From contig DXDO01000129.1 in the NCBI GenBank assembly GCA_019115425.1, forward strand, positions 1 to 43,541: DNA of 43,541 nt, read 5' to 3'. This document shows positions 17,970-43,541 of this stretch, in pieces. Below the pieces are notes generated by a model. The model did no database searches and was not told the origin of the DNA. It saw nothing but the letters and a program-made list of their open reading frames with translations. A program made the translations under genes and the position numbers. The number at the start of each line of letters is the position of its first letter. Positions within the stretch are counted from its first letter, which is position 1. This DNA is from Candidatus Agathobaculum merdigallinarum (GTDB lineage Bacteria > Bacillota > Clostridia > Oscillospirales > Butyricicoccaceae).

Positions 17970-17980
17970 ATCTCTTCCTC

Positions 17981-18174
17981 CGCGCCACCGGCGCGCATTT
18001 AATCGCAAAGCAAGATAATTTCTTGCTTTGCATAAAAACGCGCGACATGCGCGTGCGTTTTTATACCAGTGCAAAGCAAAGTGTGCCTGCCAGGCGCGCT
18101 TTGCGCAGCTGGGGGTGTATCCGCACTGTAAGTGCGGTACATCCCTCTCGATTGGAACTGTACGTTCCAATCGA
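17981..18174 (+). repeat. Multi-hairpin dispersed element, copy A
   Basis: Six consecutive hairpins including ATAAAAA-cgcgcg-ACATGCG-cgtgcg-TTTTTAT (18032-18064) and terminal TCGATTGGAAC-tgtac-GTTCCAATCGA (18148-18174); collinear with copies B-E. Confidence 0.85.
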
Positions 18175-18176
18175 AA

Positions 18177-20630
18177 TCACATGTCCGGGTTCTCATCCGC
18201 AAACACGGTCACGCCCCTGTTTTTGCTGTCCTGCATGAATTCGCGGATCACGCCCGCGATCAGCGAGCGCCAGCGCGCATTGCTGTCCGCCCGCATGGTC
18301 AGGTGGTAGCGGTAGCGCCCCATCACCTTGACCACCTGCGCCGCGGCCGGTCCCAGAACCGGCGCCTTGACATCCGCGTACTGCCCTTCCATCAGGCTTT
18401 GCAGACGGGCTTTAAGCGCGATGAGGCTTTTCAGCACCTGCTGCTCGACCTCGCCCACCGCGGTCAGCACGGTCAGGCCGCGCACCGGCGGACACTGAAG
18501 TGCCTGCCGCGTTTCCAGCTCGCGCTCGAAAAACGCTTCATAATCCTGCCGCGCTGCGGCGAGGATGACCGGATGCGCAGGGCTGTATGTCTGAATGACC
18601 GCTCTGCCCGTGTCAAATCGCCGTCCCGCGCGCCCCACCACCTGCGTAATCAGCGAAAAGGTGCGCTCACGCGCGCGATAGTCCTGCGCGTATAAGCTCT
18701 GGTCCGCGTCCAGCACGCCCGCCAGCGTGACGTTCTCGAAATCCAGCCCCTTGGTCACCATCTGGGTGCCGAGCAGGATATCCGCCCCGCCTTTGGCGAA
18801 CTGCGACAGCAGCTTTTCGTGCGCGCCCTTGGTGTTCATCGTGTCCGCATCCATGCGCAGCACGCGCGCGGACGGGAACTTTTCGTTCAGCTCCTGCTCG
18901 ACCTTCTGCGTGCCCGGTGTTTCGGTAAACAGATGCTCGCCGCCGCACACGGGGCATTTTCCGGTGATCCTGACCGATGCGCCGCAGTAATGGCACATCG
19001 CGCGGCCGGATACCGAGTGATAGGTCATGCTCGTCGAGCACGAGGGACATTCCGGTACCCAGCCGCAGAGCGCGCATCCGATCACGCGGCTGTTTCCGCG
19101 CCGGTTGAGAAACAGGATCGCCTGCTTTCCCTTTTCCAGCGTATCGATCAGCTCGCTTTCCAGCTGCGGGCCGATCACCCCTCCGCGCCCCTCGCGGGCA
19201 AGGCCGCGCATATCGGCGATCTGCACATCCGGCAGGCCGGCGCCAAGAAAGCGTTCGGTCAGCCGAAATACCGGATATTTACCCTGCTTTGCGCCATAAT
19301 ACGTCTCGACCGACGGAGTAGCCGACCCCAGAACGAGCAGAGCGTTCTGCTGGGCAACGCGGTATTTTGCCACGTCGCGCGCATGGTAGCGCGGCGACTG
19401 CTCGGAGCGGTACGCGCCGTCCTGCTCCTCGTCGATAATGAGTATCCCCAGGTTCTGCACCGGCGCGAACACCGCCGAGCGCGTGCCGATGACAACGCGC
19501 GCGCGGCCGGATTTGATCTTTTTGAAGCTGTCGTACCGCTCGCCGGCGGACAGCGCGGAGTGCAGCACCGCGACCTCGCCGCCAAACTGGGCGGCAAACT
19601 GCCGCAGCACCTGTGGGGTCAGCCCGATCTCGGGCACAAGCACGATCGCGCTTTTGCCCTGTTCCAGCGCCCTGGCAATCAGCTTTAAGTAGACCTGTGT
19701 CTTGCCGCTGCCGGTCACGCCGAACAGCAGCGCGGCGCGCGGCGCGTCCTCATCCATCAGCGCGGCAATGCCGTCATAAACCTCCTGCTGCGCCGCGCTC
19801 AGAATCGGCGGCGCGGCCTTTGGCACCTCGGAAAAATCGGGCGTACGCAGGCGCTCTTCGCGGTGCTCGCGCAGAAAGCCCTTTTTGACCATATCGCGCA
19901 GCGCCGCATCCGACACGCCGGTCATATATACAAGCTCCTTCTGGCTCATCCAGCCGCCGTCCGCCAGCAACGAGACCACGTCCATGCGGGCGGGGCTGCG
20001 GCGGCTGATGCGCGCCATTGCTTCGCCCGCCTCCATATCCAGAGAGAGCATCTTTTCGGTTTTATCGTTTGATTTCTGTATGGTATTGCTGTGATAGACG
20101 AGTATCCCCTCGCCCGCGAGCGCATCCAGCAGGCGTGTTACGCTTTTGCCGCCCAGCCGCTGCCGGATATCCGAGACTGCAAGCGTCTGTCCCGGGCGGT
20201 CGAACAAAGCCAGCACCGCGCCCGCCTCGTCCTCCCGCTTTTGCAGCGCGGCAAGGTCGGCATCCGGCGCAAGCGTATAAGTCTCGTTCCGTTTGAACCA
20301 CAGCCCTGCGGGCAGCATCACGCGCACGCAGTCAAAATAGGTGCAGTACAGGCGCTCGCGCATCCATGCGGCGAGTTTGAGCTGCTCGGCCGTTAAAACC
20401 GGCGCATCGTCCAGCACCTCGACGATGGGCTTGAGCTTGTATTCACCGGTATCTTGACGGAACGCCAGTACGACCGCTTCCGCCCGTTTATTGCCAAAGC
20501 CGAACGGCACAAGAACACGGGTGCCAATCTGCACCTGTTCCCGCAGCTCGTCCGGCACACGGTAGGAATATAGCTTGTCGATCGCATAGGTCGCCGCATC
20601 CACAGCGACCGCGCAGATTGGTTCGGTCAA
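18177..20630 (-). CDS. priA: Primosomal protein N' (replication restart helicase)
   Basis: GVTGSGKT, LVPEI, DEEQD, SATPS, four CxxC pairs and GTQMVTKGLDF; TTG start after AAAGGAG; 817 aa. Confidence 0.97.
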   Translation of the reverse strand: MTEPICAVAVDAATYAIDKLYSYRVPDELREQVQIGTRVLVPFGFGNKRAEAVVLAFRQDTGEYKLKPIVEVLDDAPVLTAEQLKLAAWMRERLYCTYFDCVRVMLPAGLWFKRNETYTLAPDADLAALQKREDEAGAVLALFDRPGQTLAVSDIRQRLGGKSVTRLLDALAGEGILVYHSNTIQKSNDKTEKMLSLDMEAGEAMARISRRSPARMDVVSLLADGGWMSQKELVYMTGVSDAALRDMVKKGFLREHREERLRTPDFSEVPKAAPPILSAAQQEVYDGIAALMDEDAPRAALLFGVTGSGKTQVYLKLIARALEQGKSAIVLVPEIGLTPQVLRQFAAQFGGEVAVLHSALSAGERYDSFKKIKSGRARVVIGTRSAVFAPVQNLGILIIDEEQDGAYRSEQSPRYHARDVAKYRVAQQNALLVLGSATPSVETYYGAKQGKYPVFRLTERFLGAGLPDVQIADMRGLAREGRGGVIGPQLESELIDTLEKGKQAILFLNRRGNSRVIGCALCGWVPECPSCSTSMTYHSVSGRAMCHYCGASVRITGKCPVCGGEHLFTETPGTQKVEQELNEKFPSARVLRMDADTMNTKGAHEKLLSQFAKGGADILLGTQMVTKGLDFENVTLAGVLDADQSLYAQDYRARERTFSLITQVVGRAGRRFDTGRAVIQTYSPAHPVILAAARQDYEAFFERELETRQALQCPPVRGLTVLTAVGEVEQQVLKSLIALKARLQSLMEGQYADVKAPVLGPAAAQVVKVMGRYRYHLTMRADSNARWRSLIAGVIREFMQDSKNRGVTVFADENPDM

Positions 20631-20678
20631 AAGCTATACTCCTTTCTCTGTTGATGAAAATTGCTATGCATATAACTC

Positions 20679-20837
20679 CGCGCCGCAGCGCGTATTTAAT
20701 AGAAAATTGCGGTGAACCGCAATTTTCATAAAAACCCGCGACATGTGCGTGGGTTTTTATACAAACCGATACCAAGTGTGCCCACTGGGCGCGCGCAGGT
20801 ATCGGAAATTTTCAATTGAAACTGTAGTTTCAATTGA
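20679..20837 (+). repeat. Multi-hairpin dispersed element, copy B
   Basis: GAAAATTGCGGT-ga-ACCGCAATTTTC, then ATAAAAA-cccgcg-ACATGTG-cgtggg-TTTTTAT, then CCGATACC...GGTATCGG, then TCAATTGAAACT-gt-AGTTTCAATTGA. Confidence 0.85.
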
Positions 20838-22038
20838 GTTGCTCCTGCTGCATCGCCAGCAGGCGGTCGAGAATGATGTCCGCAAGCTCCTCCTTGGGCA
20901 TGAGCGGCGGCGTTTCCCGCCGTCCGTCCGCAAACAGCAGGGTCGCGACATTGGTATCCGTGCCGAAGCCCGCGCCCTTGTCGCGCAGCGAGTTTGCCAC
21001 CAGCATATCGCAATTTTTGCGGCGCAGCTTATCCGCCGCGTTGTCCAGCAAATTCTGTGTTTCCATCGCAAAGCCGCACAGCAGCTGGCCGGGGTGCTTG
21101 CGCCGCCCCAGTTCGGCGAGGATATCCGGATTGCGCGCAAGGGCAACTGACATTTCGCCGTCGCCTTTTTTCATCTTTTCCGGAGCGACCTTTGCCGGAC
21201 GGTAGTCGCCCACCGCGGCCGCTTTAATCACCATGTCCTGCTGATCCGCGCGGGAGATCACCGTGTCGTACATATCGCGCGCGGATACAACATCCACCCG
21301 CTGCACGCCCTCGGGCGTAGCCAGCGCGGTCGGACCGGAGACCAGCGTCACCTCCGCGCCGCGCATCGCCGCGCGCGCCGCGACCGCATAGCCCATTTTC
21401 CCTGTCGAGTGATTGGATAGGAACCGCACCGGATCCATCGCCTCCTGCGTCGGCCCTGCGGTCACCAGCACACGGCGCCCGTGCAGATCCTGCGGGGTGA
21501 GCGCCCGCTCGATCCCCCAGAGCAGCACCGGCGTTTCCGGCAGCTTGCCGCGGCCGGTGTCGCCGCAGGCAAGCCGCCCCGCCGCAGGATCGATGATATG
21601 AAAGCCCCGCTCGCGCAGCGTCTGCAAATTCTGCTGGGTGACCGGATTGTCGTACATGCCGGTATTCATCGCCGGCGCGATCACGACCGGCGCGCGGGTC
21701 GCCAAAAGCGTGGTCGTCACCATATCGTCCGCAATGCCGTGGGCCGCCTTGGCGATGACATTCGCGGTTGCAGGGGCGATCACGAACACATCCGCCGCCT
21801 TGGCAATCGACACATGCTCAACCTCCCACGCGAAGTTGCGGTCGAAGGTATCCACCACCGTGCGATAGCCGGACAGGGTTTCAAACGTCATGGGTGAAAT
21901 AAACTGCGTGGCCGATTCAGTCATCAGCACACGCACCTGCGCGCCGGCATGACGCAGCTTGCTGGTCAGATCCGCAGCCTTATATGCCGCGATGCCGCCC
22001 GTAACGCACAAGACGACTGTTTTCCCCGCAAGACGCAT
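20830..22038 (-). CDS. coaBC: Bifunctional phosphopantothenoylcysteine decarboxylase / phosphopantothenate-cysteine ligase
   Basis: TGGIAAYK, APATAN, PAMN, LACGDTGRG, TAGPT.E..DPVRF.SN.STGKMG and GFAMET; 402 aa. Confidence 0.97.
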   Translation of the reverse strand: MRLAGKTVVLCVTGGIAAYKAADLTSKLRHAGAQVRVLMTESATQFISPMTFETLSGYRTVVDTFDRNFAWEVEHVSIAKAADVFVIAPATANVIAKAAHGIADDMVTTTLLATRAPVVIAPAMNTGMYDNPVTQQNLQTLRERGFHIIDPAAGRLACGDTGRGKLPETPVLLWGIERALTPQDLHGRRVLVTAGPTQEAMDPVRFLSNHSTGKMGYAVAARAAMRGAEVTLVSGPTALATPEGVQRVDVVSARDMYDTVISRADQQDMVIKAAAVGDYRPAKVAPEKMKKGDGEMSVALARNPDILAELGRRKHPGQLLCGFAMETQNLLDNAADKLRRKNCDMLVANSLRDKGAGFGTDTNVATLLFADGRRETPPLMPKEELADIILDRLLAMQQEQLN

Positions 22039-22041
22039 CGC

Positions 22042-22425
22042 TTACCGGTCCTCCTCCGGCACATCGCCGTCGTCCAGCTCGCTGTCTCCAAACTCGTCGA
22101 GGCGGAGATCCTCCTCCTCGGCTTCCGCTCCGTCCTCGGATGAAGTTTCCTCCTCATCCAGATCCAGCGCGTCATCCACATCCACCATCGCGGCAGCGAT
22201 CGGGTTGTTCTGCACGATCACCGGTTCGGTGCGCGGGCCGGGACGGTAAACGATCTCGCCGGCTGCGATCTCGTCGAGCGCCAGCTTGACCGCCTTATCC
22301 GGCAGCTGCTCGCCGGTTTCCTCCGCCTGGTCGGCAATGTCGCGGGCACGCTGCGCCGCCAGATTGACCAGCAGATAGCGATTGCCCACTCGCTTCATGA
22401 GTTCCTGCATGGAAGGTTTCAGCAT
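22042..22425 (-). CDS. rpoZ: RNA polymerase omega subunit with long acidic C-terminal tail
   Basis: MLKPSM..L...VGNRYLLVNLAAQRAR and KAVKLALDEI; lies between gmk and coaBC. Confidence 0.92.
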   Translation of the reverse strand: MLKPSMQELMKRVGNRYLLVNLAAQRARDIADQAEETGEQLPDKAVKLALDEIAAGEIVYRPGPRTEPVIVQNNPIAAAMVDVDDALDLDEEETSSEDGAEAEEEDLRLDEFGDSELDDGDVPEEDR

Positions 22426-22460
22426 TGTAATCAGTTCTCCTTATATTACCCTTAGTATTC

Positions 22461-22696
22461 TTCGATCGAAACTACAGTTTCGATCAAGATGAACGCACCG
22501 CACCAAAGGCGCGGATGCGTCCCAAGCTATGCAAAGTTCCGACACGCGAAACTTTGCGCCGCACTGGTATAAAAACCGTGATACACGGCCCAGGCCGCCT
22601 TCTCTTGGTCTACGACCAATTCACCTTGCGCTCCCGGTTTTTATAAAATTGCGGTATACCGCAATTTTTATTCTATTATACGCTTCGCGCGCAAAA
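22461..22696 (-). repeat. Multi-hairpin dispersed element, copy C (inverted, with nested insert)
   Basis: Reverse complement has the same hairpin order as A/B; shares AAAATTGCGGT..ACCGCAATTTT and GAAACTGTAGTTTC with B, and TTTTATACCAGTGC with A; central loop replaced by about 55 nt of extra structure. Confidence 0.8.
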
Positions 22697-23260
22697 TCAG
22701 TCCCCACGCCGCGCGGCAAAAATGCCCTGTATCTCGCGCACCGCGCGGTCGATCTCATCGTTTACCACGACATAATCGAACTTATCCTGGCTTTTCAGCT
22801 CTTCTTTTGCGGTCTCAAGGCGCTTGCGCACCTTTTCCTCGTCCTCGGTGCCGCGGCCGCGCAGGCGTGCGGCGAGCTCCTCAAAGGACGGCGGCGCGAT
22901 GAACACCATTACCGCGTCCGGACGCTTCTCATGTACCTGCATCGCACCCTGCACCTCGATCTCGAGGATCACGTCATAGCCCTCGGCAAGTTTTTCATTG
23001 ACCGGCGCTTCGAGCGTGCCGTAGTAGTTATCGACATAGCGGGCGTGCTCTAAAAACGCGTTCTGCGCGATTTTTTCCTCAAAATCCGCCTTGGTGAGGA
23101 AGTAATACTGTACGCCGTCAGTCTCGCCCGGGCGCGGCGCGCGCGTGGTCGCGGAGATCGAATAAAAAAGGCGGTTGTCCTGCTCGCGCAGAAGGGAAAG
23201 CAGCGTGCCCTTGCCCGCGCCCGACGGGCCGGTGAACACATACAGGGTTCCTTTAGGCAT
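22697..23260 (-). CDS. gmk: Guanylate kinase
   Basis: [24 protein letters not shown] and NYYGT; start 23260; 187 aa. Confidence 0.97.
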
Positions 23261-23516
23261 CCTCGGTCTCTCCTTCCTCTCCGTCGCCCGCAAAGCGCGC
23301 AGCGACCGTTTCCGGCTGCAAAGCGCTCAGCACCACATGGTCGCTGTCCATAATGAGTACCGCGCGGGTGCGGCGGCCGTAGGTGCCGTCCACCACCATG
23401 CCGCGGTCGCGCGCCTCCTGCACGGTGCGCTTGACCGGCGCGGATTCGGGGCTGACGATTGCGATCAGACGCGACGAGGCCACCATGTTGCCAAAGCCAA
23501 TATTGATGAGTTTCAC
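23253..23516 (-). CDS. remA: DUF370 family regulator RemA
   Basis: [12 protein letters not shown]...[15 protein letters not shown]...TYGRRTRAV...[15 protein letters not shown]; lies between yloC and gmk. Confidence 0.93.
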
Positions 23517-23536
23517 CCGTGCCGCCCCCTTACAGC

Positions 23537-24412
23537 TTATTCAATATTCTGAATCTGTTCGCGGATCTTTTCGATCTCGCTTTTGATATCCACCACGATG
23601 CGCGCCATATCCACGTCGTTCGCCTTGGAACCGATCGTGTTGGCCTCGCGGTTCATTTCCTGCACCAGAAAATCCAGCTTGCGGCCGACCGGCTGGGTCT
23701 CCTTCAGCATACCGTCCAGCTGGTGCAGATGGCTGCGCAGGCGGACAGTCTCCTCATCGACCGCAGTCTTGTCGGCATAGATCGCCGCCTCGGTCAGGAT
23801 ACGTGTTTCGTCGATGCTGGTATCCGCCAGCACCTCCTGCATACGCGCGCGCAGCTTTTCACGGTACTCCCTGACGCGCTCGGGCGAGCGTTTCTCCACC
23901 TCGCTCACCATGCGCTCGATCGCGGCGCAGCGGCCGCGCACATCCTCGGCAAGCTTTTCGCCCTCGCGCAGGCGCATCTGATCAAAGCCGTCGCAAGCCT
24001 TCCCGAACACATCGGTCACGTCGCGGATCAGCTCATCCGCGTCCTGCTCGATCCGCTCCGATCCCAAAACTTCCGGCATTTTGGCCAGCACGGCGACGGT
24101 CACGTCGTCCCGCAGGCCATAGGTCTCGCTCAGGTCGTGCAGCGCGTCCAGATAGCGCTTTGCCAGTGCGTGGTTGACCGTGACGGCGATATCCCCGCCC
24201 TCCTGCATCTCCACGCTGACGAAAATCTCCACTTTTCCGCGCGCGATACGGGCCGCGGCGGCTTTTTTGACCGCGTCATCCAGAAAACCGTACTGGCGCG
24301 GCGCCTTGACCGTGCAGTCCAGATAGCGATGGTTGACCGCGCGCAGTTCGACCGTGATCGTGCGGCCGTTCAGCTCCTCCCTGGCGCGGCCGTAGCCGGT
24401 CATACTCTTCAT
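23537..24412 (-). CDS. yloC: YicC/YloC family endoribonuclease
   Basis: [36 protein letters not shown] and [11 protein letters not shown]; 291 aa. Confidence 0.95.
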
Positions 24413-24429
24413 GTCATTTCTTCCCCTTT

Positions 24430-24936
24430 TCAATCGGGCGGCAGGCTTCTGCGCAGCAGCGCAATCAGCCGTGACAGCGCCACGTCATACATTAAAAATA
24501 TAACATTGGCCGCGGCCCACAGCGCCACGACCTTGCCCAAGCCGGTGACGGCGAGCTGCGGCATAAACACGAATACCGCCAGCGCGGCGGCGACCACCAG
24601 CACGACGTTGAAATACGCCAGCTTGATACCGGTCTGCATCTGCCGCGGCATACGGCTCTCGATCACAAACTTGACGATCGGGTACAGGCCGCAAAACAGC
24701 ACATAGGCCGCAGCCACACTCTTGCGCGGCGTGACCAGTATACCCAGCAGCGATGCCGCGGCATACAGCAGCACCGCGGTTTTCAGCTGCGCATGCCGCA
24801 AAAGCGGTACAGCCGAGGTGACGCCCGCTACGATACACGCCGCTGGGCCGATATAGGGCGCGGCGCCGCCTACATACAAAAGCGCCACGGCGGCAGCGGC
24901 CAGCAGCCCGCCGCGCGCAATCTCCCTTGCGTTCAT
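24430..24936 (-). CDS. Hypothetical integral membrane protein (about 5 TM)
   Basis: Highly hydrophobic 168 aa with GLYPIVK..IE; starts 1 nt after the J-domain gene stop. Confidence 0.75.
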   Translation of the reverse strand: MNAREIARGGLLAAAAVALLYVGGAAPYIGPAACIVAGVTSAVPLLRHAQLKTAVLLYAAASLLGILVTPRKSVAAAYVLFCGLYPIVKFVIESRMPRQMQTGIKLAYFNVVLVVAAALAVFVFMPQLAVTGLGKVVALWAAANVIFLMYDVALSRLIALLRRSLPPD

Positions 24937-24937
24937 A

Positions 24938-25555
24938 TCAGCAGCCCGCGTTGCAGCAGGAGTTCAGGCAGCAGTTGCAGATCGCCAGCTGCAGGCAGAA
25001 ATCGCACATATTCGTCTCCTGCATGGGACGGTAGCCGCCGTAGCCGCCCGACATGTTCAGATTGTTGAGTGCGGTGCGGTACTCCAGGTTGGACGGGTCC
25101 ATCTGGCACGCCTGCGTATAGGAACGCGCGGCCTCGTCATACCAGCCCTTGCGGTAATACACCGTGCCCATCAGGTAGAACCACTCGGCGTCCCTGCCGT
25201 TCGCGCGCTGCAAAAGCTGCTCGGCCATACCCAGATTTCCCTGATTGATCGCCTGGCGCACCTGACTGTACAATGACGCGTTCGGGCCGGAATAGGCGCG
25301 CTGCTGCGCGCCGCCGTACTGCTGGCCGCCGTATTGCTGCCCGCCCGAAGCGCCGCCTGCGGATTTGCCCGCGCGCTCGTTCATGATCATGTCGTAGGCC
25401 TCGTTGATCTCTTTCATACGGGCTTCCGCGAGATCCGCCAGCGGATTGTTGATATAGTTGTCTGGATGATATTTGCGCGCCAGCTCGCGGTAAGCGCGCT
25501 TGACGTCGTCGTCGCTTGTCTGTGGCGTGACGCCCAGCACCTTATAGGGATCCAT
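24938..25555 (-). CDS. J-domain (DnaJ-type) protein with TPR-like region and Cys-rich C-terminus
   Basis: DPYKVLGV...YRELARKYHPD J domain, G/Q-rich linker, AEWFYLMG...GWYDEA TPR-like helices and CDFC..AICNCCLNSCCNAGC tail. Confidence 0.88.
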   Translation of the reverse strand: MDPYKVLGVTPQTSDDDVKRAYRELARKYHPDNYINNPLADLAEARMKEINEAYDMIMNERAGKSAGGASGGQQYGGQQYGGAQQRAYSGPNASLYSQVRQAINQGNLGMAEQLLQRANGRDAEWFYLMGTVYYRKGWYDEAARSYTQACQMDPSNLEYRTALNNLNMSGGYGGYRPMQETNMCDFCLQLAICNCCLNSCCNAGC

Positions 25556-26426: not shown

Positions 26427-26477
26427 TACATAATCCTTTCACGCCGCACTCGGGACACGGCCTTGCGTATTCAACCT

Positions 26478-26506
26478 ATTTTACCGAACTTTTGCGGATA
26501 ACACAA
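26478..26506 (-). promoter_or_regulatory. Putative SigA promoter at the head of the DUF5685-to-thiN gene run
   Basis: Minus strand TTGTGT-17 nt-TAAAAT in an AT-rich gap. Confidence 0.45.
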
Positions 26507-26545
26507 GGGATAAACGGATAAAATCAGTAAAAATTTACAAAAAGT

Positions 26546-26959: not shown

Positions 26960-27009
26960 TGGTCTCGCTCCATTCTTTTTTCAGTATTTTTTGCGCCGCA
27001 GCGCACCTA

Positions 27010-32334: not shown

Positions 32335-32373
32335 ACTTCTCTCCTCCTCAGGTTGGTCTACCCTCATCCTATG

Positions 32374-32402: not shown

Positions 32403-32440
32403 GAAACCGAACAGTAAAATCGCCCAAGGAGTGAAAAAAC

Positions 32441-33643: not shown

Positions 33644-33652
33644 CGCGGATAG

Positions 33653-33699
33653 GCATACAAAAAAGCAGGCTTCGTTAGCAAAGCCTGCTTTTTGTATGC
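33653..33699. terminator. Bidirectional intrinsic terminator between the DUF815 gene and htrA
   Basis: GCATACAAAAAAGCAGGCTT-cgttagca-AAGCCTGCTTTTTGTATGC between convergent stops. Confidence 0.85.
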
Positions 33700-33706
33700 G
33701 TAGTTC

Positions 33707-35203
<1,497 letters not shown>

Positions 35204-35235
35204 TGCAATGACCTCCCTATCGATTTTGTGCTTTC

Positions 35236-35289
35236 ATTCTACCGGTCCATTGTGGCAGTTTGTTGAAAACAATATGAATAATTTTTGAA
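35236..35289 (-). promoter_or_regulatory. htrA promoter with tandem OmpR-family regulator boxes
   Basis: Minus strand TTCAAAA, TTCATAT, TTCAACA, GCCACAA at exact 11-bp period, upstream of a TAGAAT -10 (35236-35241); no good -35. Confidence 0.55.
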
Positions 35290-35339
35290 CTTCAATTTTC
35301 CCCCAATATTCAACCGGACAAACCGCCGTCCGAAGGCGA

Positions 35340-35526
35340 CAGCCTCTCGATCGGAACCATGCTTCCGATCGAAATTTACGCAAAAAAAGGTTCCCCTATG
35401 CGAAACTTTTTTGCTCTCAAAGTATAAAAAGTCAGGCACATGTCCTGACTTTTTATGAATTTTGCGGCAAGCCGCAAAATTCTGTTTGATGCGCGCTGCG
35501 GCGCAAAAGACTTTTTCGACAGACTG
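35340..35526 (-). mobile_element. Multi-hairpin dispersed element, copy D, MITE-like with imperfect TIRs and target duplication
   Basis: Same hairpin array, inverted (ATAAAAAGTCAGG-CACATGT-CCTGACTTTTTAT at 35424-35456); ends CAGCCTCTCGA...TCGACAGACTG (9/11 inverted match); AAGGCG repeated at 35333-35338 and 35527-35532. Confidence 0.7.
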
Positions 35527-35557
35527 AAGGCGGCGGTCTTTGCGCATATGATTTCTG

Positions 35558-37012
35558 TTATTGCTGTTTCGCGCCCGGCAGCTGCGGCGGGGCGAGCGGC
35601 AGGGTAAATTCAAACTCGGTCTCGCCGCCGTCTGACCGGACAGAGATCTCCCCGCCGTGCAGATTGATAATATTCTTGACAATATATAATCCCAGACCCG
35701 CGCCGGTTTTATCCATGGAGCGCGAGCGATCGGCCTTATAGAAGCGGTCGAAAATATGCGGCAGGTCATCCGCCGAGATGCCCGCGCCCGTGTTGCTGAT
35801 CGAGAACGCGCAGAACGTGCCCTCCGGATGCGCGCGCAAGCACAGCCGGCCGCCCTCGTCAATAAACTTGACCGCGTTATCCACCAGATTATACACCGCG
35901 CGGTACAGATGATCTCTGTCACCCATGACGATCAGCCGATCCTCCAGTTCGCAGCATACCTCCAGTTTCTTATTTTCAATCTTCTGCTCAAAGGAGAGGA
36001 TGATCTGGCTGGTCATCTCGGAGAAATCAAGCGGCGCAGGGTTCAGGATCAGCTCGCCCGACTGGATCTTTGCCGCGTCCAGCATGCGATTGACCATGCG
36101 CGACAGGCGGCGGGTCTCCTCGGCAATGATGTGCAGATATTTATCCCGCTGGTCGGCGGGAATCGTGCCGTCAATCATGCCGTCCACAAAGCCGCCGATC
36201 GTAGTCATCGGGGTTTTGAACTCGTGGCTGACGTTGGAGATAAACCCGCGCGTCAACTCCTCCAGCTGATCGAGGTCGCGCGCCATGTTGTTGAAGGAGA
36301 CCGCCAGCTCGTCGATCTCATAACAACGGTTGTCCTCGGGGACGCGCACCTCAAAATTGCCGGCCGCAAACTCTTTCGCCGCCGCCGCAATCACTTTGAG
36401 CGGCCGCGTCATATGCTGGGACAGGATGAACGATATGATCAGCGCCACCACCAGCGTCACCAGCAGGATGAGCACCAGCGTCTGCGTGGAGTGCCGCACC
36501 ATCCCCGCCGCCGCGGCGTCCTGCGTGTAGATAAACACCATGGCGGAAAGCTCTCCGTTGTCGTCCGTCACGCCTGTGCCCACGGTATAGCTGGAGCGGT
36601 CCCCCAGCACGCCGAGCTGTCCCAGCTCGGCATAGCTGCCCGTGTTGCGTACCTGGCGAACCACAGCGGCCGGCATAATATATCCACTGACCGACGCTGT
36701 CGAACCGTCTGGGGCAGCGACCATTTCTATCACGCCGTTTGAATCGGTCACACAAACAGTAATCGCGTCCTCTTTGGCGACACGGCCGATGGACAGCATA
36801 TAAATATCCCTGATAATCTCCGAATCCGTTCCCTGCATCAGTTTGGTCTGCTCCGCAAGGCTCTGCACGGTCGTGCGCAGTTCCACCTGTTTGGATCTGA
36901 GCGCATAATTGCTCATCTGGTAATAAAACACGCTGCCCGCCACCGCGAACGCACATACGATCAGCACCAGATGCGTCACATAGTTTTTGAAGAAAAAACT
37001 GCGTCTGCCCAT
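35558..37012 (-). CDS. HAMP-domain sensor histidine kinase
   Basis: Two TM helices, HAMP, SHEFKTP H-box, NLVDNAVKF, FDRFYKAD and GAGLGL; 484 aa. Confidence 0.95.
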   Translation of the reverse strand: MGRRSFFFKNYVTHLVLIVCAFAVAGSVFYYQMSNYALRSKQVELRTTVQSLAEQTKLMQGTDSEIIRDIYMLSIGRVAKEDAITVCVTDSNGVIEMVAAPDGSTASVSGYIMPAAVVRQVRNTGSYAELGQLGVLGDRSSYTVGTGVTDDNGELSAMVFIYTQDAAAAGMVRHSTQTLVLILLVTLVVALIISFILSQHMTRPLKVIAAAAKEFAAGNFEVRVPEDNRCYEIDELAVSFNNMARDLDQLEELTRGFISNVSHEFKTPMTTIGGFVDGMIDGTIPADQRDKYLHIIAEETRRLSRMVNRMLDAAKIQSGELILNPAPLDFSEMTSQIILSFEQKIENKKLEVCCELEDRLIVMGDRDHLYRAVYNLVDNAVKFIDEGGRLCLRAHPEGTFCAFSISNTGAGISADDLPHIFDRFYKADRSRSMDKTGAGLGLYIVKNIINLHGGEISVRSDGGETEFEFTLPLAPPQLPGAKQQ

Positions 37013-37015
37013 GGT

Positions 37016-37696
37016 TTACTCCTTGGTTTCAAATTTATAGCCCACACCCCAGACGGTCTTTAACTCCCACTTATCCGAAGCGCCCTCGAGCTTTTCGCGC
37101 AGGCGCTTGACATGTACATCCACCGTGCGGGTATCGCCGAAATAGTCGAAGCCCCACACATCGTCCAGCAGCTGCGCGCGGGTGAACACCCGGTTCGGGC
37201 TGGATGCCAGATAGTACAGCAGCTCGATCTCCTTGGGCGGCGCGTCCACACGTTTTCCCCTGATAACCAGATCATATGCCTGCTTGTCGATCACGAGGTT
37301 GTCAAACGACAGCTTTTCAGGTGCGTCGTCCGGCGCCATGCGGCGGAACACCGCGCGCACGCGCGCAATCACCTCAGGCATCTCGAGCGGCTTGACGATA
37401 TAGTCGTCCGCGCCCATTTCGAGGCCGGAGACCCTGTCCGCCGTCTCGCCCTTGGCGGTCAGCATGATGATCGGCACGTCGCTTTCCGCGCGGATCTCCT
37501 TGCAGACCGCCCAGCCGTCCATCACCGGCATCATCACGTCGAGCAGCAGCATATCCGGCTTTTCCGACTTCCACAGCTTAATGCCTTCCACGCCGTTTTC
37601 CGCCTCCAGCACCGCATAGCCCTCACGCTCCAGATACAGGCGCAGCAGCTCGCGGATGTTGGCTTCGTCTTCCACAATCAATATTTTCTTGGGCAT
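37016..37696 (-). CDS. OmpR/PhoB family response regulator
   Basis: ILIVEDE, LLDVMMP, LTAK, GADDYIVKP and winged-helix RTVDVHVKRLREKL..TVWGVGYK; start 37696; 226 aa. Confidence 0.95.
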   Translation of the reverse strand: MPKKILIVEDEANIRELLRLYLEREGYAVLEAENGVEGIKLWKSEKPDMLLLDVMMPVMDGWAVCKEIRAESDVPIIMLTAKGETADRVSGLEMGADDYIVKPLEMPEVIARVRAVFRRMAPDDAPEKLSFDNLVIDKQAYDLVIRGKRVDAPPKEIELLYYLASSPNRVFTRAQLLDDVWGFDYFGDTRTVDVHVKRLREKLEGASDKWELKTVWGVGYKFETKE

Positions 37697-37785
37697 GATA
37701 TCCCCTGCTTTCCCATAGTATGCTTCCATTATACCGCTGTTTGCCTGAAAAAGCATTAACAATCTGTAAAAGCGCGTCCGGCCGA

Positions 37786-37814
37786 TTGTGCGTGCCGCGC
37801 GGGTGTGTTATAAT
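37786..37814 (+). promoter_or_regulatory. SigA-type promoter for tsaA
   Basis: TTGTGC-17 nt-TATAAT with TG extended -10. Confidence 0.6.
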
Positions 37815-37843
37815 CTTGACATCCTGTAGGAAGGGGGCCTTTC

Positions 37844-38536
37844 ATGTCCCACACCATTCCCATGCGCGTGATCGCACACATTCACAGCGATTTTCCAACC
37901 AAATTTGGTATCCCTCGTCAAAGCGGGCTGGCCGACGCGCCCGCACGCATTGTTTTCGAACCCGAATACCGCAATGCCGACGCATTGCGCGGCATCGAGG
38001 GATTTTCGCATCTCTGGCTGCTCTGGCATTTTTCCAAGGCCGAGCGCGAGGGCTGGTCTCCAACCGTGCGCCCGCCCAAGCTGGGCGGCAACAAGCGCGT
38101 AGGCGTGTTCGCCACACGCTCCCCCTTTCGGCCGAACGCCATCGGACTATCCTCCGTCCGGCTGGATCGGGTCGAACTGCAAACGCCCGACGGCCCAGTG
38201 CTGCATATCGCAGGCGCCGACCTGATGGACGGCACGCCGATTCTGGATATCAAGCCCTATCTGGCCTATACGGACGCGCATCCGGACGCCGTGGGCGGCT
38301 TCGCCGACCCTGTCTCACAGCGCGCATTGCCGGTGGACTGCCCTCTTGCTCTGCTCGAACCTCTGCCCGAAAACCGGCGGGAGGCGCTGCTCGCCGTGCT
38401 TGCGCAGGACCCGCGTCCGGGCTACCAACACGAGCCGGACAGAGTGTACGGTTTCCCGTTCGCGGGCTTCGAGGTGCGCTTTTCGGTCTCGGACGGCCGC
38501 CTGACGGTCGTTGATATCCAGCCCGCGGAGGGATAA
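37844..38536 (+). CDS. tsaA: tRNA (t6A37)-N6-methyltransferase TrmO
   Basis: KFGIPRQSG, FSHLWLLW.F, PTVRPP.LGGN..VGVFATRSPFRPN, DGTPILDIKPY and QDPRP. Confidence 0.95.
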   Translation: MSHTIPMRVIAHIHSDFPTKFGIPRQSGLADAPARIVFEPEYRNADALRGIEGFSHLWLLWHFSKAEREGWSPTVRPPKLGGNKRVGVFATRSPFRPNAIGLSSVRLDRVELQTPDGPVLHIAGADLMDGTPILDIKPYLAYTDAHPDAVGGFADPVSQRALPVDCPLALLEPLPENRREALLAVLAQDPRPGYQHEPDRVYGFPFAGFEVRFSVSDGRLTVVDIQPAEG

Positions 38537-38554
38537 ATTCCGCTTTGCAAACAC

Positions 38555-38587
38555 AAAACCGCCCCGGAACTTTCCGGGGCGGTTTTT
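38555..38587. terminator. Bidirectional intrinsic terminator between tsaA and the DUF4914 gene
   Basis: AAAACCGCCCCGGAA-ct-TTCCGGGGCGGTTTT between convergent stops. Confidence 0.85.
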
Positions 38588-38600
38588 ATATGCGTTTTTA

Positions 38601-40475
38601 TTACAGGTTGGTCGGGGTGATCGCCTCAAAGTCCTCGAGCTTGCCGCCGCGCATGAAGCATTCGATGATCTCCTTGCCGCGCGGGTCGAGTTCAGGCGTA
38701 TCGAACTTCGCCAGTTCCTTGCGGAAGAAGTTCTCCAGGATCTTCGCGCCCGCATCATAGCCTTCGGTGCCGACGCGGTCCTGCGTATCGACGCGCAGGT
38801 ACTTGGAGCGGATGCGCTGGCCGTCGATCGTCATATCCTTCATTGCGTAGCCGAGCAGCGGGCAGCGGGCCGGTTCCAGATGCTCGCGGCGGATGCGCGC
38901 GCCGCCGTGGCGGGCAAGATACTCGCGGGAGATCCACTCAGCCGCAAAGCCGACCTTATACACGCCGATGTGCTGGTTCGGGATGAGCACATAGCGGGTA
39001 TTCGGGCAGTTCATGATCTGCTCCAGCAGCAGGTTGGCCTGCTTGACGCGCTGGCCGGTCGCAAACGGCCAGTAGGAGCCGACGCCCTCGCTCTTGAGCT
39101 CGTTGCCGGTCACGATGGACGGGTTGTTGAAGCCGCGCGGCGCAACCAGACGCCACAGCCAGGCGAGTGCAGGCGGGATAATGTGCATCATGCCCATGAT
39201 GCCGTAGTTCGGATTCTCGCGCGTCGTGGGGGGCATGCGCACGCCGAACGAGCGCACGTCGACCTCCACAGGCTCCTTGACGATATGCGGCACATCCCAG
39301 CGCGGCACGATCGCGCGCGGGTTGGAGCAGGGCTTGCCGTTGGAATCGAGCGTATGCTCCCAAATCAGCAGAGTCGCGCCCGCATGGCCTTCCATATTGA
39401 AGAAGCAGAGCGGCTCCTTCGGCTCGGTGCAGATGCGCTCGTACACCGGATCGCAGCCGTAATGGGTCACGCCATCCATGCGCAGGAACCAGCCGTCCTC
39501 GCCGTCCACCAGCACAAGCTTGCCCGACCGGTTTTGAAGCTGCGGATAGCAGGTCGCCATATCGTCGCACACCGGCTCGATCGAGCAGGTCGCGCCCATG
39601 TTGATATAGGTCTCCTCACCGGTCACAGTGTTGGTAGAGAGCAGCACGCGGCCGTCCGGATCGCGGGCGATGTCCTGCAGCATCTCGCTCTTGCCGCCGC
39701 CGGAAGCGCCCTCGTGCATGATGACCATTTCGTTTTCATACGGGGTAACGAGACGGCCGCAGGAGGTGTGCGCGGTCACCCAGCCCTCCTGCTCGCCGAT
39801 GTCGAGCAGCACCGAGTATACGCCCTTCTTGGCGGACGGGCCGGGATACAGGTTGTAGGAAAATACCTCGTGGCAGTCGTCCAGGCGGTTGTGCACAACG
39901 ACCTGCTTGCCCTCGAAGTGGGTATGGCGGAACGGGGGCGCCACGTAAACGATCGCGCGCGGCTTGTAGCCGTCGCACTCCTCGGCGTTGACAAAGCCCT
40001 GCAGATGCGCCAGCGCGAACGCGAAAAACGCGCACTGCTTGGGGCACACGAGCATGGAGCCGTAGCCGTAGATATTGCCGCCCGAGTTAAAGGGCATCAG
40101 GATCAGCTCCTGCGTCTTGAACCAGTCCATGGTTTCCTTGCGCAGATCGCTGAAAGGATAGCCGTATACATCCGCAAAGCGCTTTTTGTCGGTCGGCTTG
40201 TCGTCCGCGATGCGCATGCAGTCCGGCTCACGGCGGCGCATATAGTCCTCCACGAAGTTGACCGAGGCGCCGTTCTTGCAGCGGGTCACGTCCGCTTCCT
40301 TGACCGGACCTTTGCCGGGCACGTCGAACACGACGTCGTAAACATCCGCATGCTCGGGCCCGAACACCATGTCGTACAGCTCCGCCTTGCTGGTCGGCAC
40401 TGATACGCCTTTGCAGTGTTCGATCACATCGGTCAGCTCATCTGTAAAAGTGAATTTGGTCAGCAGAGAGTTCAT
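38601..40475 (-). CDS. DUF4914 family protein, PEP carboxykinase-like fold
   Basis: YPGPSAKKG, AHTS, GASGGGKSE P-loop, CDD and NPRA in PEPCK motif order; AAGGAGG RBS; 624 aa. Confidence 0.82.
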   Translation of the reverse strand: MNSLLTKFTFTDELTDVIEHCKGVSVPTSKAELYDMVFGPEHADVYDVVFDVPGKGPVKEADVTRCKNGASVNFVEDYMRRREPDCMRIADDKPTDKKRFADVYGYPFSDLRKETMDWFKTQELILMPFNSGGNIYGYGSMLVCPKQCAFFAFALAHLQGFVNAEECDGYKPRAIVYVAPPFRHTHFEGKQVVVHNRLDDCHEVFSYNLYPGPSAKKGVYSVLLDIGEQEGWVTAHTSCGRLVTPYENEMVIMHEGASGGGKSEMLQDIARDPDGRVLLSTNTVTGEETYINMGATCSIEPVCDDMATCYPQLQNRSGKLVLVDGEDGWFLRMDGVTHYGCDPVYERICTEPKEPLCFFNMEGHAGATLLIWEHTLDSNGKPCSNPRAIVPRWDVPHIVKEPVEVDVRSFGVRMPPTTRENPNYGIMGMMHIIPPALAWLWRLVAPRGFNNPSIVTGNELKSEGVGSYWPFATGQRVKQANLLLEQIMNCPNTRYVLIPNQHIGVYKVGFAAEWISREYLARHGGARIRREHLEPARCPLLGYAMKDMTIDGQRIRSKYLRVDTQDRVGTEGYDAGAKILENFFRKELAKFDTPELDPRGKEIIECFMRGGKLEDFEAITPTNL

Positions 40476-40589
40476 CTATTTGTTTCCTCCTTTTCACACT
40501 GCCGCGTTCTTCCCAAAACGCCGTCCAGTGTGTCCACGGAACCTTGTTAAAAAAATGACGTTTAACAAGGCCTATTGTTCTTCATTTAT

Positions 40590-40619
40590 AGCATACCGCA
40601 AAACCGGCCCCTTCGTCAA
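40590..40619 (-). promoter_or_regulatory. SigA-type promoter for the DUF4914 gene
   Basis: Minus strand TTGACG-18 nt-TATGCT, about 115 nt upstream of the ATG. Confidence 0.55.
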
Positions 40620-40726
40620 CTCATTTTCACATTTTTGCAGGATTTTAGACAACTTCTTGCAATGTGTACAAAACCCAACAAATGTTTTCATCTGTTTTTC
40701 TCACATGGACAAGTGTTCTTCGCGCA

Positions 40727-41908
40727 TCAATCCGTGAAACGGACGGTAATGCGCACGATTTCGCTGCGGGTGCCCACGCGCATATCCGGCCCCCAGACAC
40801 CCAGCCCCGAGGTGACGACCGAGTACATCCCCCCTACCTGCAAACAGCCGCAGGGATTGTCCCAGAGAAGCGGCATGAGCAGGTTGCCCGGAAATACCTG
40901 CCCGTCATGTGTATGGCCGGACAGATCGAGGTCTGCGCCCGCCGCGGCCAGTTCGTTCAGTTCCTTCGGCTGATGGTCGATGACAAAAACAGGCTGCTCC
41001 GGATCGAGCGGCTCCAGCAGCTGCTCCGGCGCCAGCCGGGCGCTGTCCAGCTTGCGGCTGCGCGAGGGGTCCTTACGCCCGACCAGCTGCACGCCGTTTG
41101 CGAGCGTCACCGCCTCGTCCTCCAGCAGGGTGATACCCGCCTTTTCGAGGAAACCGGTCATGCGCGGATCATCCTTGTCCGCGTCGGCCGTATCCCAGGT
41201 AAATCCTGCGAGGATGGGTTCGGAAACGTCGTGGTTGCCCCAGCAGGCATAGGTGCCGTATGTACTCCGCATGGACGCCAGCGCCGCCGCGATCCGTTCC
41301 GGTTCGGGTACTGCCTCATATTCGTTGTCAAAAATATCGCCCGCGATCACAACAAGATCGGGCTGCATGGCGTTCACCACCTGCGCCGTCTGCTCGATGT
41401 AGGCTGGGTCGGTGTTATACCCCAGATGCAGGTCAGCCAGCAGGGCGACCGTCATGTCCTCCCCTTTGCCGTCCAGCGCGACCTCGTAATCCGTCACACG
41501 CAGCGTATCGGCATTCACCATGCCGTATATGCACACCGCGCACACCAGCGCAAGCGCAATGCCGCCCTGCACCTGCCGCACGCGCTGCATCTGTATAAAA
41601 TCTTTTTTTCGCACTCTGCGCACGGCAAACAGCATGATTTCCACCAACAGGATCGCCAGCCCCAGATACAGCATGCAGCCGAACCAGTAGTTGCCGATCT
41701 GCCGAAGAAGGTGCCGCAGCGCGGGCGGCGACTGCACCAGGAATCCGGTCAGCGGCGTGACCGACACAAAGGCATACAGAATGATAAAGATAATCCGGAA
41801 TGCCCTCGTGCCGAACAGCCGGTGACAGCAGCCTGTCCAGCGCAGCACCCAATGCGCCAAATACAGGTTCACCAATATATAAAACGGCGCGAAAACCAAA
41901 GCAAGCAT
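40727..41908 (-). CDS. Membrane-anchored calcineurin-like metallophosphoesterase (YkuE/YaeI-like)
   Basis: N-terminal TM helices; DLH, GDIFD, GNHD, DHQP and SGHTHDGQ. Confidence 0.9.
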   Translation of the reverse strand: MLALVFAPFYILVNLYLAHWVLRWTGCCHRLFGTRAFRIIFIILYAFVSVTPLTGFLVQSPPALRHLLRQIGNYWFGCMLYLGLAILLVEIMLFAVRRVRKKDFIQMQRVRQVQGGIALALVCAVCIYGMVNADTLRVTDYEVALDGKGEDMTVALLADLHLGYNTDPAYIEQTAQVVNAMQPDLVVIAGDIFDNEYEAVPEPERIAAALASMRSTYGTYACWGNHDVSEPILAGFTWDTADADKDDPRMTGFLEKAGITLLEDEAVTLANGVQLVGRKDPSRSRKLDSARLAPEQLLEPLDPEQPVFVIDHQPKELNELAAAGADLDLSGHTHDGQVFPGNLLMPLLWDNPCGCLQVGGMYSVVTSGLGVWGPDMRVGTRSEIVRITVRFTD

Positions 41909-41978
41909 CGTCAGTCCCCCAGGAAAACCGCCAAATCGTCAAAAGAAAACAGCGCGGGCGCCAAAGCGCCCGCCTCGC

Positions 41979-42761
41979 TCACCTCTTCCAACGCTCCCAT
42001 ACACGGGTGACGGACGAACATCTGCCGTCCCGCCCGATTTCAAAGACCGCGCCCGAAAGCGCACAGTCGCCCGGGGCGGTTTTGAAATACTCGGTCAGGT
42101 CGCCGCGGAACATGGCGACCGACTGCTCGACGCACACGCCCAGCACGGACACGATCGGCCCTGTCATGCCGATATCCGTGATATAGCCCGATCCCTTGGG
42201 ATTTACGCGGTTGTCCGCGGTCTGCACATGGGTGTGCGTGCCCCAGATGGCGGACGCGCGGCCGTCCAGATAATAGCCCATGGCGAGTTTTTCGCTCGTG
42301 GCGTTCGCATGGATCTCTGCAAGGGCGATGTCGTATTTGCCCGCCGCCTCGCCGAGGATCTTATCCGCGCGCAGGAACGGGTTATCCGGCCCGTAGTGCA
42401 TGTCGCACCGGCCGATCAGGTTCATCACCAGCAGGCGCAGGCCCTGCGGCCCGTCGTAGATGCCCCAGCCCTGCCCTGGGCTTTGCGGGGCAAGGTTGGC
42501 AGGGCGCAGTACGTTCGAATGCTCGTCCAAATAGGGCGCGATCTGCTGCTTGGAAAACGCGTGGTTTCCCAGCGTGATCACATCCGCGCCCGCGGCAAAG
42601 ATATCGTCCGCCTGCTTCGGGGTAACGCCCCGCCCTGCGGCGTTCTCGCCGTTGACGATCACGAAATCCGCGCCGTGCTCGCGTTTGACACGGCGAAGCA
42701 GGCCGTGCAGGGTGTCGATCCCCGCTTCGCCGACCACGTCGCCGATGGTTAAAACTTTCAT
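41979..42761 (-). CDS. ymdB: TIGR00282 family metallophosphoesterase YmdB
   Basis: GDVVG, NGENAA, TLGNH, RPAN, HA.ATSEK, GTHTHVQTAD and TDIGMTG. Confidence 0.93.
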   Translation of the reverse strand: MKVLTIGDVVGEAGIDTLHGLLRRVKREHGADFVIVNGENAAGRGVTPKQADDIFAAGADVITLGNHAFSKQQIAPYLDEHSNVLRPANLAPQSPGQGWGIYDGPQGLRLLVMNLIGRCDMHYGPDNPFLRADKILGEAAGKYDIALAEIHANATSEKLAMGYYLDGRASAIWGTHTHVQTADNRVNPKGSGYITDIGMTGPIVSVLGVCVEQSVAMFRGDLTEYFKTAPGDCALSGAVFEIGRDGRCSSVTRVWERWKR

Positions 42762-42785
42762 CGTGTACCTTTCCTTCTCTTGATT

Positions 42786-43307
42786 TCACAGTCTTACCGG
42801 CTCGTAAACCAGTTCTGCCATGCCGCCCGACTGCCGCACGGACACCAGCCGCTGTATTTCGCCCTCTGGGAACAGCCGGATGCCGCCGCTGAGCAGCACG
42901 GGAAGCACGGTCAGGTGCCAGCGGTCAATCTCGCCCGCGGCGGCTGCCGCCGCGAGCAGCTCCGCGCCGCCGCACAGCCAGATGTCCTTGCCGTGCTTAC
43001 GCTTTTGCGCGCGCAGCCACTCGGCAAAGTCCCCCTCGATGCACTGCGCATGGGGCAGCGGCCCGCTGTCATGCGTCCAAACCCAACAGTCCAGCCCCGC
43101 ATGCGGCCATACATCCGGCGAAAGCGTTTCTGTGACCTGCCGATAGGTTCGGCCGCCCATAACGACCGTATCCACGCCCTGCACGAAGGCTTCGTAGCCG
43201 CCGTCCTCCTGCGCGTCCGCGAAATCATCCAGCCAGTCCACGCCGCCATCCCTATCCGCGATAAAGCCGTCCAAGCTGACCGCCAGATATGCCACTGCCT
43301 TGCGCAT
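42786..43307 (-). CDS. Dihydrofolate reductase / RibD C-terminal domain family protein
   Basis: SLDGFIA..DGGVDWL, MGGRTY, IWLCGG and PVLLSGGIRLF; ATG at 43307 after AAGGAAGG; 173 aa. Confidence 0.88.
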   Translation of the reverse strand: MRKAVAYLAVSLDGFIADRDGGVDWLDDFADAQEDGGYEAFVQGVDTVVMGGRTYRQVTETLSPDVWPHAGLDCWVWTHDSGPLPHAQCIEGDFAEWLRAQKRKHGKDIWLCGGAELLAAAAAAGEIDRWHLTVLPVLLSGGIRLFPEGEIQRLVSVRQSGGMAELVYEPVRL

Positions 43308-43322
43308 ATGCCCTTCCTTTCC

Positions 43323-43357
43323 AAAAAGGGAGGCGGACAGCCCTCTGTCCGCCTCCC
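43323..43357 (-). terminator. Intrinsic terminator immediately upstream of the DHFR-family RBS
   Basis: 13-bp stem GGGAGGCGGACAG-aggg-CTGTCCGCCTCCC followed by TTTTT on the minus strand. Confidence 0.65.
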
Positions 43358-43372
43358 CCGTTCTCATTTCAA

Positions 43373-43541
43373 GCCGCGCCCCGCGGCAATTTAACAGAAA
43401 ATCGCCCCGCGATTTTCATAAAAAGTCAGGACATGCGCCTGACTTTTTATACAAAGGCCAAAAGGCGGAAAAATCAAAATTTTTCTGTCTTTTGGGCGCA
43501 ATAGCTGTTTCAGGCGCAGCCTGACAACAGCGTCCCTCGAT
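43373..43541 (+). repeat. Multi-hairpin dispersed element, copy E (truncated by the window end)
   Basis: GCCGCG-ccc-CGCGGC, GAAAATCGC-ccc-GCGATTTTC, ATAAAAAGTCAGG-ACATGCG-CCTGACTTTTTAT and two further hairpins; ends TCGAT at the start of the terminal palindrome. Confidence 0.85.

Follow-up and report, generated by a model that had tools for sequence, protein, structure and literature searches.

A family of multi-hairpin repeats in Agathobaculum with young, IS1182-ended, terminator-duplicating members and probably older, end-less relatives

The insertion sequence (IS) IS1272, a member of the IS1182 family, and TnSha1 are described as targeting hairpins and terminators without a sequence consensus, and one hairpin can be struck repeatedly and independently in both orientations (PMC4923244, PMC5678879). 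The outcome reported for IS1272 in these accounts is deletion rather than duplication of the hairpin, and duplication of a whole stem-loop is drawn as a possible route (PMC5678879). The pneumococcal repeats BOX, RUP, and SPRITE are described as modular, interspersed hairpin repeats with nested insertions, likely mobilization in trans, and possible co-option near the 3' ends of genes (PMC3049150), and repetitive extragenic palindromes (REPs) and bacterial interspersed mosaic elements (BIMEs), which are associated with REP-associated tyrosine transposases (RAYTs), are imperfect palindromes between co-oriented genes, close behind coding regions (PMC3733652). In cellulolytic clostridia, stem-loops within operons could set the ratio of upstream to downstream transcripts (PMC9045158). 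Here, we analyze a family of multi-hairpin repeats that is represented by five copies (A-E) in a 43,541-nucleotide (nt) stretch of DNA from Candidatus Agathobaculum merdigallinarum (contig DXDO01000129.1 of assembly GCA_019115425.1), hereafter called the window. [quoted passage not shown] We consider it fairly likely that both tiers form one repeat family, in which the young, IS1182-ended tier duplicates terminators and likely moved in trans, and the old tier probably descended from it and exchanged its modules by recombination.

The source genome (G000; G numbers denote genomes, L numbers the loci examined, and C numbers contigs of G000) comprises 2.0 Mb in 203 contigs, has a G+C content of 58%, and is 92% complete. 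The window is the whole of contig C60 and carries housekeeping genes (gmk, rpoZ, coaBC, priA, a GNAT gene, def, and fmt among them), almost all of which lie on the minus strand. A first-pass annotation of the window had described five copies of an intergenic element with ordered hairpins (H0 to H5), and all five were found where it placed them with the hairpins that it listed:

17981..18174, plus strand: copy A, a resident array without ends (H0-H1-H2-H3-H4-H5), located between the GNAT gene and priA in antisense orientation
18032..18064, plus strand: H2 of copy A, a 13-bp hairpin closed by an A-tract and a T-tract, the anchor of the family
20648..20844, plus strand: copy B allele, 197 nt in place of 21 nt of the empty allele, antisense
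20679-20837, plus strand: copy B core, a MITE-type interior that lacks H4 and has no duplication
20648-20660, plus strand: copy B pad, decayed, resembling a left end
22461..22696, minus strand: copy C, a resident array without ends, lying between gmk and rpoZ in the sense orientation
35340..35526, minus strand: copy D, an IS1182-type MITE with an intact left end, missing the right terminal hairpin H6
43373..43541, plus strand: copy E, an end-less resident array cut by the contig end

The architecture originally proposed is incomplete at three of these copies: copy D has in addition an IS1182-type terminal repeat of 18 nt at its start and lies between the parts of a split terminator hairpin, copy C holds a separate 43-nt insert in its H2 loop, and copy E is truncated by the end of the contig. 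The orthologous site of copy E (L168) has a complete H5 with prs behind it, which places copy E antisense between prs and a RibD_C gene. A covariance model built from 26 end-less copies, A among them, recovers all five window copies at 89-175 bits, and every remaining match in the window scores below 27 bits. Pairing is retained in 95.4% of the cells of the 26-copy alignment, and both sides have changed in 36 of 49 pairs; none of 500 shuffles came up to these values, and slid-partner controls gave 34-48%. H2-type hairpins number 54 in the genome and 0 in each of five block shuffles.

Three profile models detected 122 loci in G000, a few of which are split or weak: 43 with end sequences, 60 of a class that we call alpha (end-less, with an H3-H4-H5 tail), and 19 of a class that we call beta (end-less, with a different three-hairpin tail). 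The proposal of a genome-wide family thus holds, at a density of about one locus per 16 kb rather than the one per 9 kb estimated from the window. The H2 loop, nearly invariant among four of the window copies, is not so across the family, as the two commonest 9-nt loops account for 206 of 313 copies and further loop types are present. Copy D has matches in 24 of 24 congeners and in 0 of 16 genomes of other families, and when the full model was run on 121 genomes, with scoring limited to 21 candidates per genome, strong matches were confined to the genus, in which each species has its own expanded MITE subfamily. Searches of plasmid and phage records returned no family match. We found no description of the family in the literature searched, including the main text of PMC11602168, whose MITE database and supplements may list such elements. 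Some resident arrays form head-to-head or tail-to-tail pairs (C42:8698-9135 and C143:14825-15208 in G000; L169, L170, and L292), and C157 holds partial family units in tandem.

The young tier consists of non-coding units of 213-217 nt, with both ends present at 24 loci in G000. Beyond what the earlier hairpin model contained, these copies have a left end of 18 nt and one more hairpin at the opposite terminus, H6, the 3' arm of which forms the right end. The left end equals or nearly equals that of an intact IS1182 in the congener G047, which encodes a 488-amino-acid (aa) transposase with DUF772 and DDE_Tnp_1_6 domains, and it likewise bounds an intact element in G031 that passes the IS1182 family cut-off. 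The right ends are identical to that of the L121 IS1182 at 13-14 of 18 positions. IS1182, one of several partners suggested in the first-pass annotation, is supported as the likely partner by these left-end matches. Among two-ended rows, 53 of 71 repeat a whole host hairpin of 17-40 nt on both flanks (10 of 17 own rows, some with mis-called ends, and 43 of 54 related rows), compared with 1 of 557 mismatched-flank controls (1/130 and 0/427), and all of the duplicated flank segments fold as hairpins. Most young copies therefore differ from IS1272, which deletes or replaces the hairpin, and they differ further from IS1272/TnSha1 in being non-coding, with an interior that is a hairpin array (PMC4923244, PMC5678879).

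Copy D is a right-truncated, terminator-duplicating MITE of this IS1182 type, and its boundaries are as follows:

35509..35526, minus strand: left terminal inverted repeat of copy D, 16/18 identical to the left end of the intact congener IS1182 (L121)
35527..35541, minus strand: 5' portion of the terminator hairpin of the host, upstream of copy D, by comparison with empty alleles
35319..35339, minus strand: rest of that terminator hairpin, downstream of copy D, sharing about 6 nt with the upstream portion

The target duplication at copy D spans only about 6 nt. The site is empty and contains a single undisturbed terminator in all four informative relatives (G043, G007, G012, and G023), and the site of a MITE copy in G043 (L184) is empty in G000. 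One terminator was struck independently by the MITE in G000 (C34:5970-6256) and in G043 (L185), in opposite orientations. End-bearing copies are enriched between convergent genes (14/34, compared with a background of 75/502; p=2e-4) and show no strand bias (10:8). They are young, with a nearest-paralogue median of 0.92 compared with 0.73-0.79. The earlier suggestion of a non-autonomous mobile element is accordingly supported for the end-bearing tier, and the statement that no mobilizing gene lies within the window also stands. With high confidence, we propose a mechanism in which an IS1182 DDE transposase supplied in trans would bind the 16-18-bp MITE ends, these ends would be joined at both feet of an extruded terminator hairpin, and repair would duplicate the entire hairpin.

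IS1182-like matches in G000 were evaluated as the partner and rejected, as they correspond to another IS5/IS1182-like gene (C8) and to a fragment that ends like a different MITE. The gene on C8 (L001) is a 481-aa open reading frame (ORF) with a weak IS1182-family match (48.8 bits) that reaches the contig end, and its ends match neither MITE. This second, unrelated MITE of about 150 bp has 31 end matches in G000, its end matches an IS1182 5' fragment at C160, and it is found at C23, C33, C71, C93, C105, C130, C150, C178, and others as well as L002, in some cases in or beside copies of the first family.

The compensatory changes in the stems had been taken as a sign of selection on structure, and the young copies do not support this interpretation for RNA. 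Of 101 private stem differences counted in 46 copies from five young subfamilies, 54 belong to changes that alter both arms within a single copy, a class of change that independent mutation at 1.6% per site would almost never yield. Differences between orthologous H2 hairpins are mostly double at every distance, with 336 double, 73 single with pairing kept, and 38 broken at 85-92% flank identity (counted over non-independent pairs). Duplicated terminators differ at times by an inverted loop, and H1 loops are found in both orientations. These both-arm changes and inverted loops fit module exchange or one-step template switching, marks of which are described for replication in PMC8794818; template switching would copy one arm onto the other, so that stems stay paired. 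Because half of the private stem changes of young copies strike both arms together, covariation here is no proof of RNA selection, and copying at the DNA level, not a concealed RNA gene, is the likely source of most of the matched stem changes.

We regard it as highly improbable that the family is a structured non-coding RNA, that is, an antisense transcript of the element strand selected for its fold. The strong covariation, a z score of about -11 on both strands of copy A, an excess of G.T over A.C on the element strand of alpha copies (62:21), and the conservation of resident stems beyond neutral sites are each consistent with such an RNA, but the compensation occurs in single steps, modules at a site are freely replaced or lost, and promoter-like sites are at the level of chance (2, compared with 1.9). 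The comparison with Rfam yielded no gathering-level family match, either for the window or across 20 loci (T-box leaders were the sole hits), and the E-value-level matches in 17800-22900 were all under the cut-off. Furthermore, antisense residents have GNRA loops in 0 of 208 hairpins, in contrast to host spacer hairpins, in which GNRA loops favor the mRNA strand 11:1 and G.T exceeds A.C by 67:16 on that strand; for antisense residents, the corresponding wobble count is 51 to 24 on the non-mRNA strand. No wobble bias is seen in the beta class, in which UUCG can be read in a few loops provided that a U.G pair is accepted. GNA DNA triloops were also considered and were not persuasive (only 13, compared with 5-7). 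RNA-library contigs cross copy C, and these show neither the strand nor a single transcript, with the qualification that run X2 may contain DNA.

Modules are also exchanged as whole units. At site A, which is filled in three of four informative close relatives and empty in G023, G007 retains H1 and H2 with a beta tail instead, G012 retains H1 with a different H2, and G043 has a different H1 and H2 with a beta tail. From 26 orthologous rows we removed five (one that bears ends, one whose insert lies at the start of a contig, and three at head-to-head doubles), and module replacement was evident in 9 of the resulting 21 pairs, in which at least one module is clearly nearer to a G000 paralogue than to its orthologue, with the other 12 largely intact. 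In the rplI-dnaB spacer, alpha and beta tails alternate between sister genomes within supported clades, with both in tandem in three genomes, and alpha alleles are 86% alike across species and, if a match of nearly full length is present in G000, only about 72-78% alike to their best paralogue there. This alternation, together with alleles that are nearer to each other, indicates that allele transfer between species or differential deletion contributes beside conversion by paralogues. Strains whose flanks are at least 97% identical likewise differ by entire modules; of 29 candidate swaps among 73 such pairs, many are artefacts (cut contigs, tandem units, and one-sided flanks), and we used only the rplI-dnaB and rpmJ alleles. 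The type of H2 shows no association with the type of tail in 38 copies (p=0.23), a comparison in which beta tails were left untyped. At the rpmJ site of some strains (L348 and L355), a third, unrelated tail stands in place of the beta tail. Recombination at conserved anchors would swap modules between paralogues and between species. BOX, in contrast, varies mainly in the number of its modules (PMC3049150), whereas here sequence-different, fully paired modules substitute at a fixed site.

End-less copies are placed differently from the young MITEs. Between co-oriented genes, as defined by ORF predictions, 46 are antisense and 10 are sense to the mRNA (p=1e-6). Replication-strand bias was considered as the source of this pattern and rejected, as antisense copies also prevail 8:1 for genes that run against the contig majority, which is a weak proxy. 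Of 17 residents that could be parsed completely, 14 have their tail hairpin no more than 15 nt from a stop codon (mode, 5-7 nt), and complements of stop codons peak about 5 nt from the tail hairpin without a fixed word or spacing. In copy A, H5 terminates 2 nt from the priA stop codon, and the stop codon of coaBC is provided by the copy B allele. The empty allele of copy B, with the joint 20647/20845 and the 21 nt intact, is present in contigs of strains that are about 97.5% identical. Empty orthologous sites, for which the first-pass annotation had proposed a search at gmk-rpoZ, coaBC-priA, and priA-def, were obtained for B and also for D. In the coaBC-priA spacer, the place of copy B is taken in G016 and G022 by GTAG-type palindromes (L077 and L080), which indicates that repeats of different kinds gather there. 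H0 is preceded by short, heptamer-like runs rich in purines at resident sites L441, L444, L445, L447-L449, L451, and L214. In the closed genome G019, resident-type matches are not above control.

The persistence of residents varies by site. Whereas the C element is present in 2 of 29 informative genomes and B is filled in 3 of 30, the rplI-dnaB spacer is occupied in 23 of 29 (30 of 36 genomes fetched, one cut by a contig end), with decayed, truncated, or lost copies in G017, G047, and G001 and six genomes empty. Nine alpha alleles at this site differ at 6.5% of paired positions, 32% of unpaired positions, and 42% of 4-fold sites, and in 11 orthologous pairs chosen as unswapped, 3.1% of paired and 14.1% of unpaired positions differ. 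It is rather doubtful that residents are purely neutral MITE debris without host function, whose stems are held by hairpin-driven mutation and homogenizing recombination. One-step compensation, loop inversion, the decay and loss seen at rplI-dnaB, and the absence of B in close strains fit such debris; the persistence of one site in 23 of 29 genomes, site-specific stems that are 86% identical where 4-fold sites are 58% identical, a loop-to-stem change ratio of about 4.6 in residents compared with 2.05 in young copies, and the strong antisense bias argue against it.

Three asymmetries keep their orientation among 313 non-independent copies: the H2 loop (285:1), an H3-type T.G wobble (162:0, with 5 perfected), and a bulged T in H4 (97:3). 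Because resident stems are conserved beyond neutral sites and these asymmetries are fixed, some constraint or recognition is possible, and to this extent the earlier claim of selection and of a recognized loop survives, although not through covariation as evidence for RNA. The stem conservation would reflect host use, recognition of one strand by something, or strong homogenizing recombination.

These asymmetries also bear on whether the end-less core represents independent, older REP/BIME-like palindromes that are read strand-specifically as single-stranded DNA by a nicking enzyme that would both seed copies and rewrite them, with one branch that later captured IS1182 ends. We judge this origin unlikely. 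It would account for asymmetries that stay fixed while H1 loops flip freely, for residents that lack ends and duplications, for the patchy occurrence of C and B across species, and for the H2 module outside the genus, as a search of 401 genomes returned H2 alone in 5 genomes of other genera (of about 390), some of which hold it in tandem arrays, and in one contig of a phage. Residents share with REPs and BIMEs their imperfect, strand-asymmetric palindromes near stop codons. However, G000 has no PF01797 gene; such genes match in 6 of the 36 genomes of the genus, and just one of them touches a family copy, as part of an IS200 inserted into a MITE, for which reason Y1/RAYT enzymes were rejected as mobilizers. 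Among 94 neighbor proteins scanned (out of 155 clusters within 700 nt; E<=1e-8), no nuclease or transposase gene recurs beside the core, and the scan returned only one relaxase and one NikA-like protein, each at a single locus. The idea of an origin of transfer (oriT) was discarded, as the copies next to these two genes occupy ordinary chromosomal sites. The tail end lacks a fixed target word, and some relatives outside the genus also end in an IS-end hairpin followed by a terminator. In further distinction from REPs and BIMEs, the core alignment lacks a terminal GTAG or CGTC tag, GTAG being found only in an insert (X, below), no Y1/RAYT gene neighbor was found, and the units are 180-200 nt; the main text of PMC3733652 leaves Firmicutes and clostridia unmentioned.

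Outside the genus, in genomes of other families, the H2 module is embedded in other hairpin repeats at L288, L290, L298, L289, and L287, where the tandem arrays measure 183, about 152, and 259 nt. On the phage contig, L309:1501-1536 holds an H2-like hairpin plus others between two phage genes that resemble terminase and portal genes. Within the family, copies serve as targets for nested inserts, one of which lies in copy C:

22586..22628, minus strand: insert Y in the H2 loop of copy C, 43 nt, with its own hairpin and no clear target duplication

All five genome matches to insert Y, a hairpin of about 43 nt, are in or beside family copies (the window, C170, C143, C53, and C157), and it is also present in relatives (L004, L099, and L100). 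Insert X, a hairpin of about 52 nt with a GTAG-containing end, occupies several positions within family hairpins in both orientations and without clear duplication (L052, L055, L098, and L110; C10, C18, C2, and C157). The IS200-type element noted above (L162:1069-2084) lies inside a MITE copy that also holds insert X, with identical copies at six or seven places in G019.

For the residents, we favor descent from the MITE: A, B, C, and E are probably older, end-less, reshuffled relatives of it. We lean toward an origin in which H5 would be the former right-end hairpin and the left end would have decayed, and intermediates between H5 and the right end are seen in G016, G013, G041, and G042. Operon copies would have survived mainly when antisense, as U-tract hairpins there would fold more weakly in mRNA. 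REP hairpins close behind stop codons affect mRNA decay. We suggest tentatively that the host may retain many residents just behind the stop codon as putative mRNA-stability or partial-termination elements. Compared with the stem-loops of cellulolytic clostridia, which are single and host-specific with measured effects (PMC9045158), the arrays described here are repeat-derived.

Several observations weigh against this overall account. IS1182-type ends are absent from A, C, and E, none of A, B, C, and E has a target duplication, and copy B replaces 21 nt; we therefore infer, rather than observe, the descent of these four copies from the MITE. The beta tail, present in 33 of 36 genus genomes, lacks an end-like hairpin, and the H2 module also occurs in tandem arrays of other families. 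Template switching alone leaves unexplained both the conservation of resident stems (6.5%, compared with 42% at 4-fold sites) and the three asymmetries that never flip. In folding, the element strand has only a small advantage (5 kcal/mol, in 12 of 17), and H2 of copy A is terminator-like on both strands. The cognate transposase was found neither in G000, at 92% completeness, nor in the closed genome G019 despite its many young copies, and no more than 12 of the 36 genomes of the genus match the partner transposase protein. This partner may be transient, or it may be missing from the assemblies. Finally, the three complete IS elements tested fail the duplication cut-off, as L023 has a 20-nt repeat with 4 mismatches and L139 and L143 have none. 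We think it quite unlikely that the end-less arrays are a domesticated, self-renewing hairpin cassette, that is, genus-wide control elements internal to operons, antisense about 5 nt behind stops, with loop, wobble, and bulge read strand-specifically by a protein that also drives module rewriting and with the IS1182-ended MITE as the dispersal form.

Two other features of the window were noted. Between secDF and purB, at 4041-4075, a lone A-tract/T-tract hairpin is H2-like in outline only and resembles an ordinary bidirectional terminator. The GNAT gene between priA and def (17361-17960) has its best likeness to the arsinothricin acetyltransferase ArsN1b, below the family cut-off (181 compared with 210 bits).

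Taken together, these results show, in a bacterium, textbook covariation that stems largely from one-step events in DNA, which is a caution for the discovery of non-coding RNAs in gut clostridia. They also add an IS1182 system that targets structure and duplicates entire terminators, and for which a candidate transposase is available. The family represents a mobile repeat caught at two life stages within one genus, which makes the domestication of repeats as operon-tuning elements testable.

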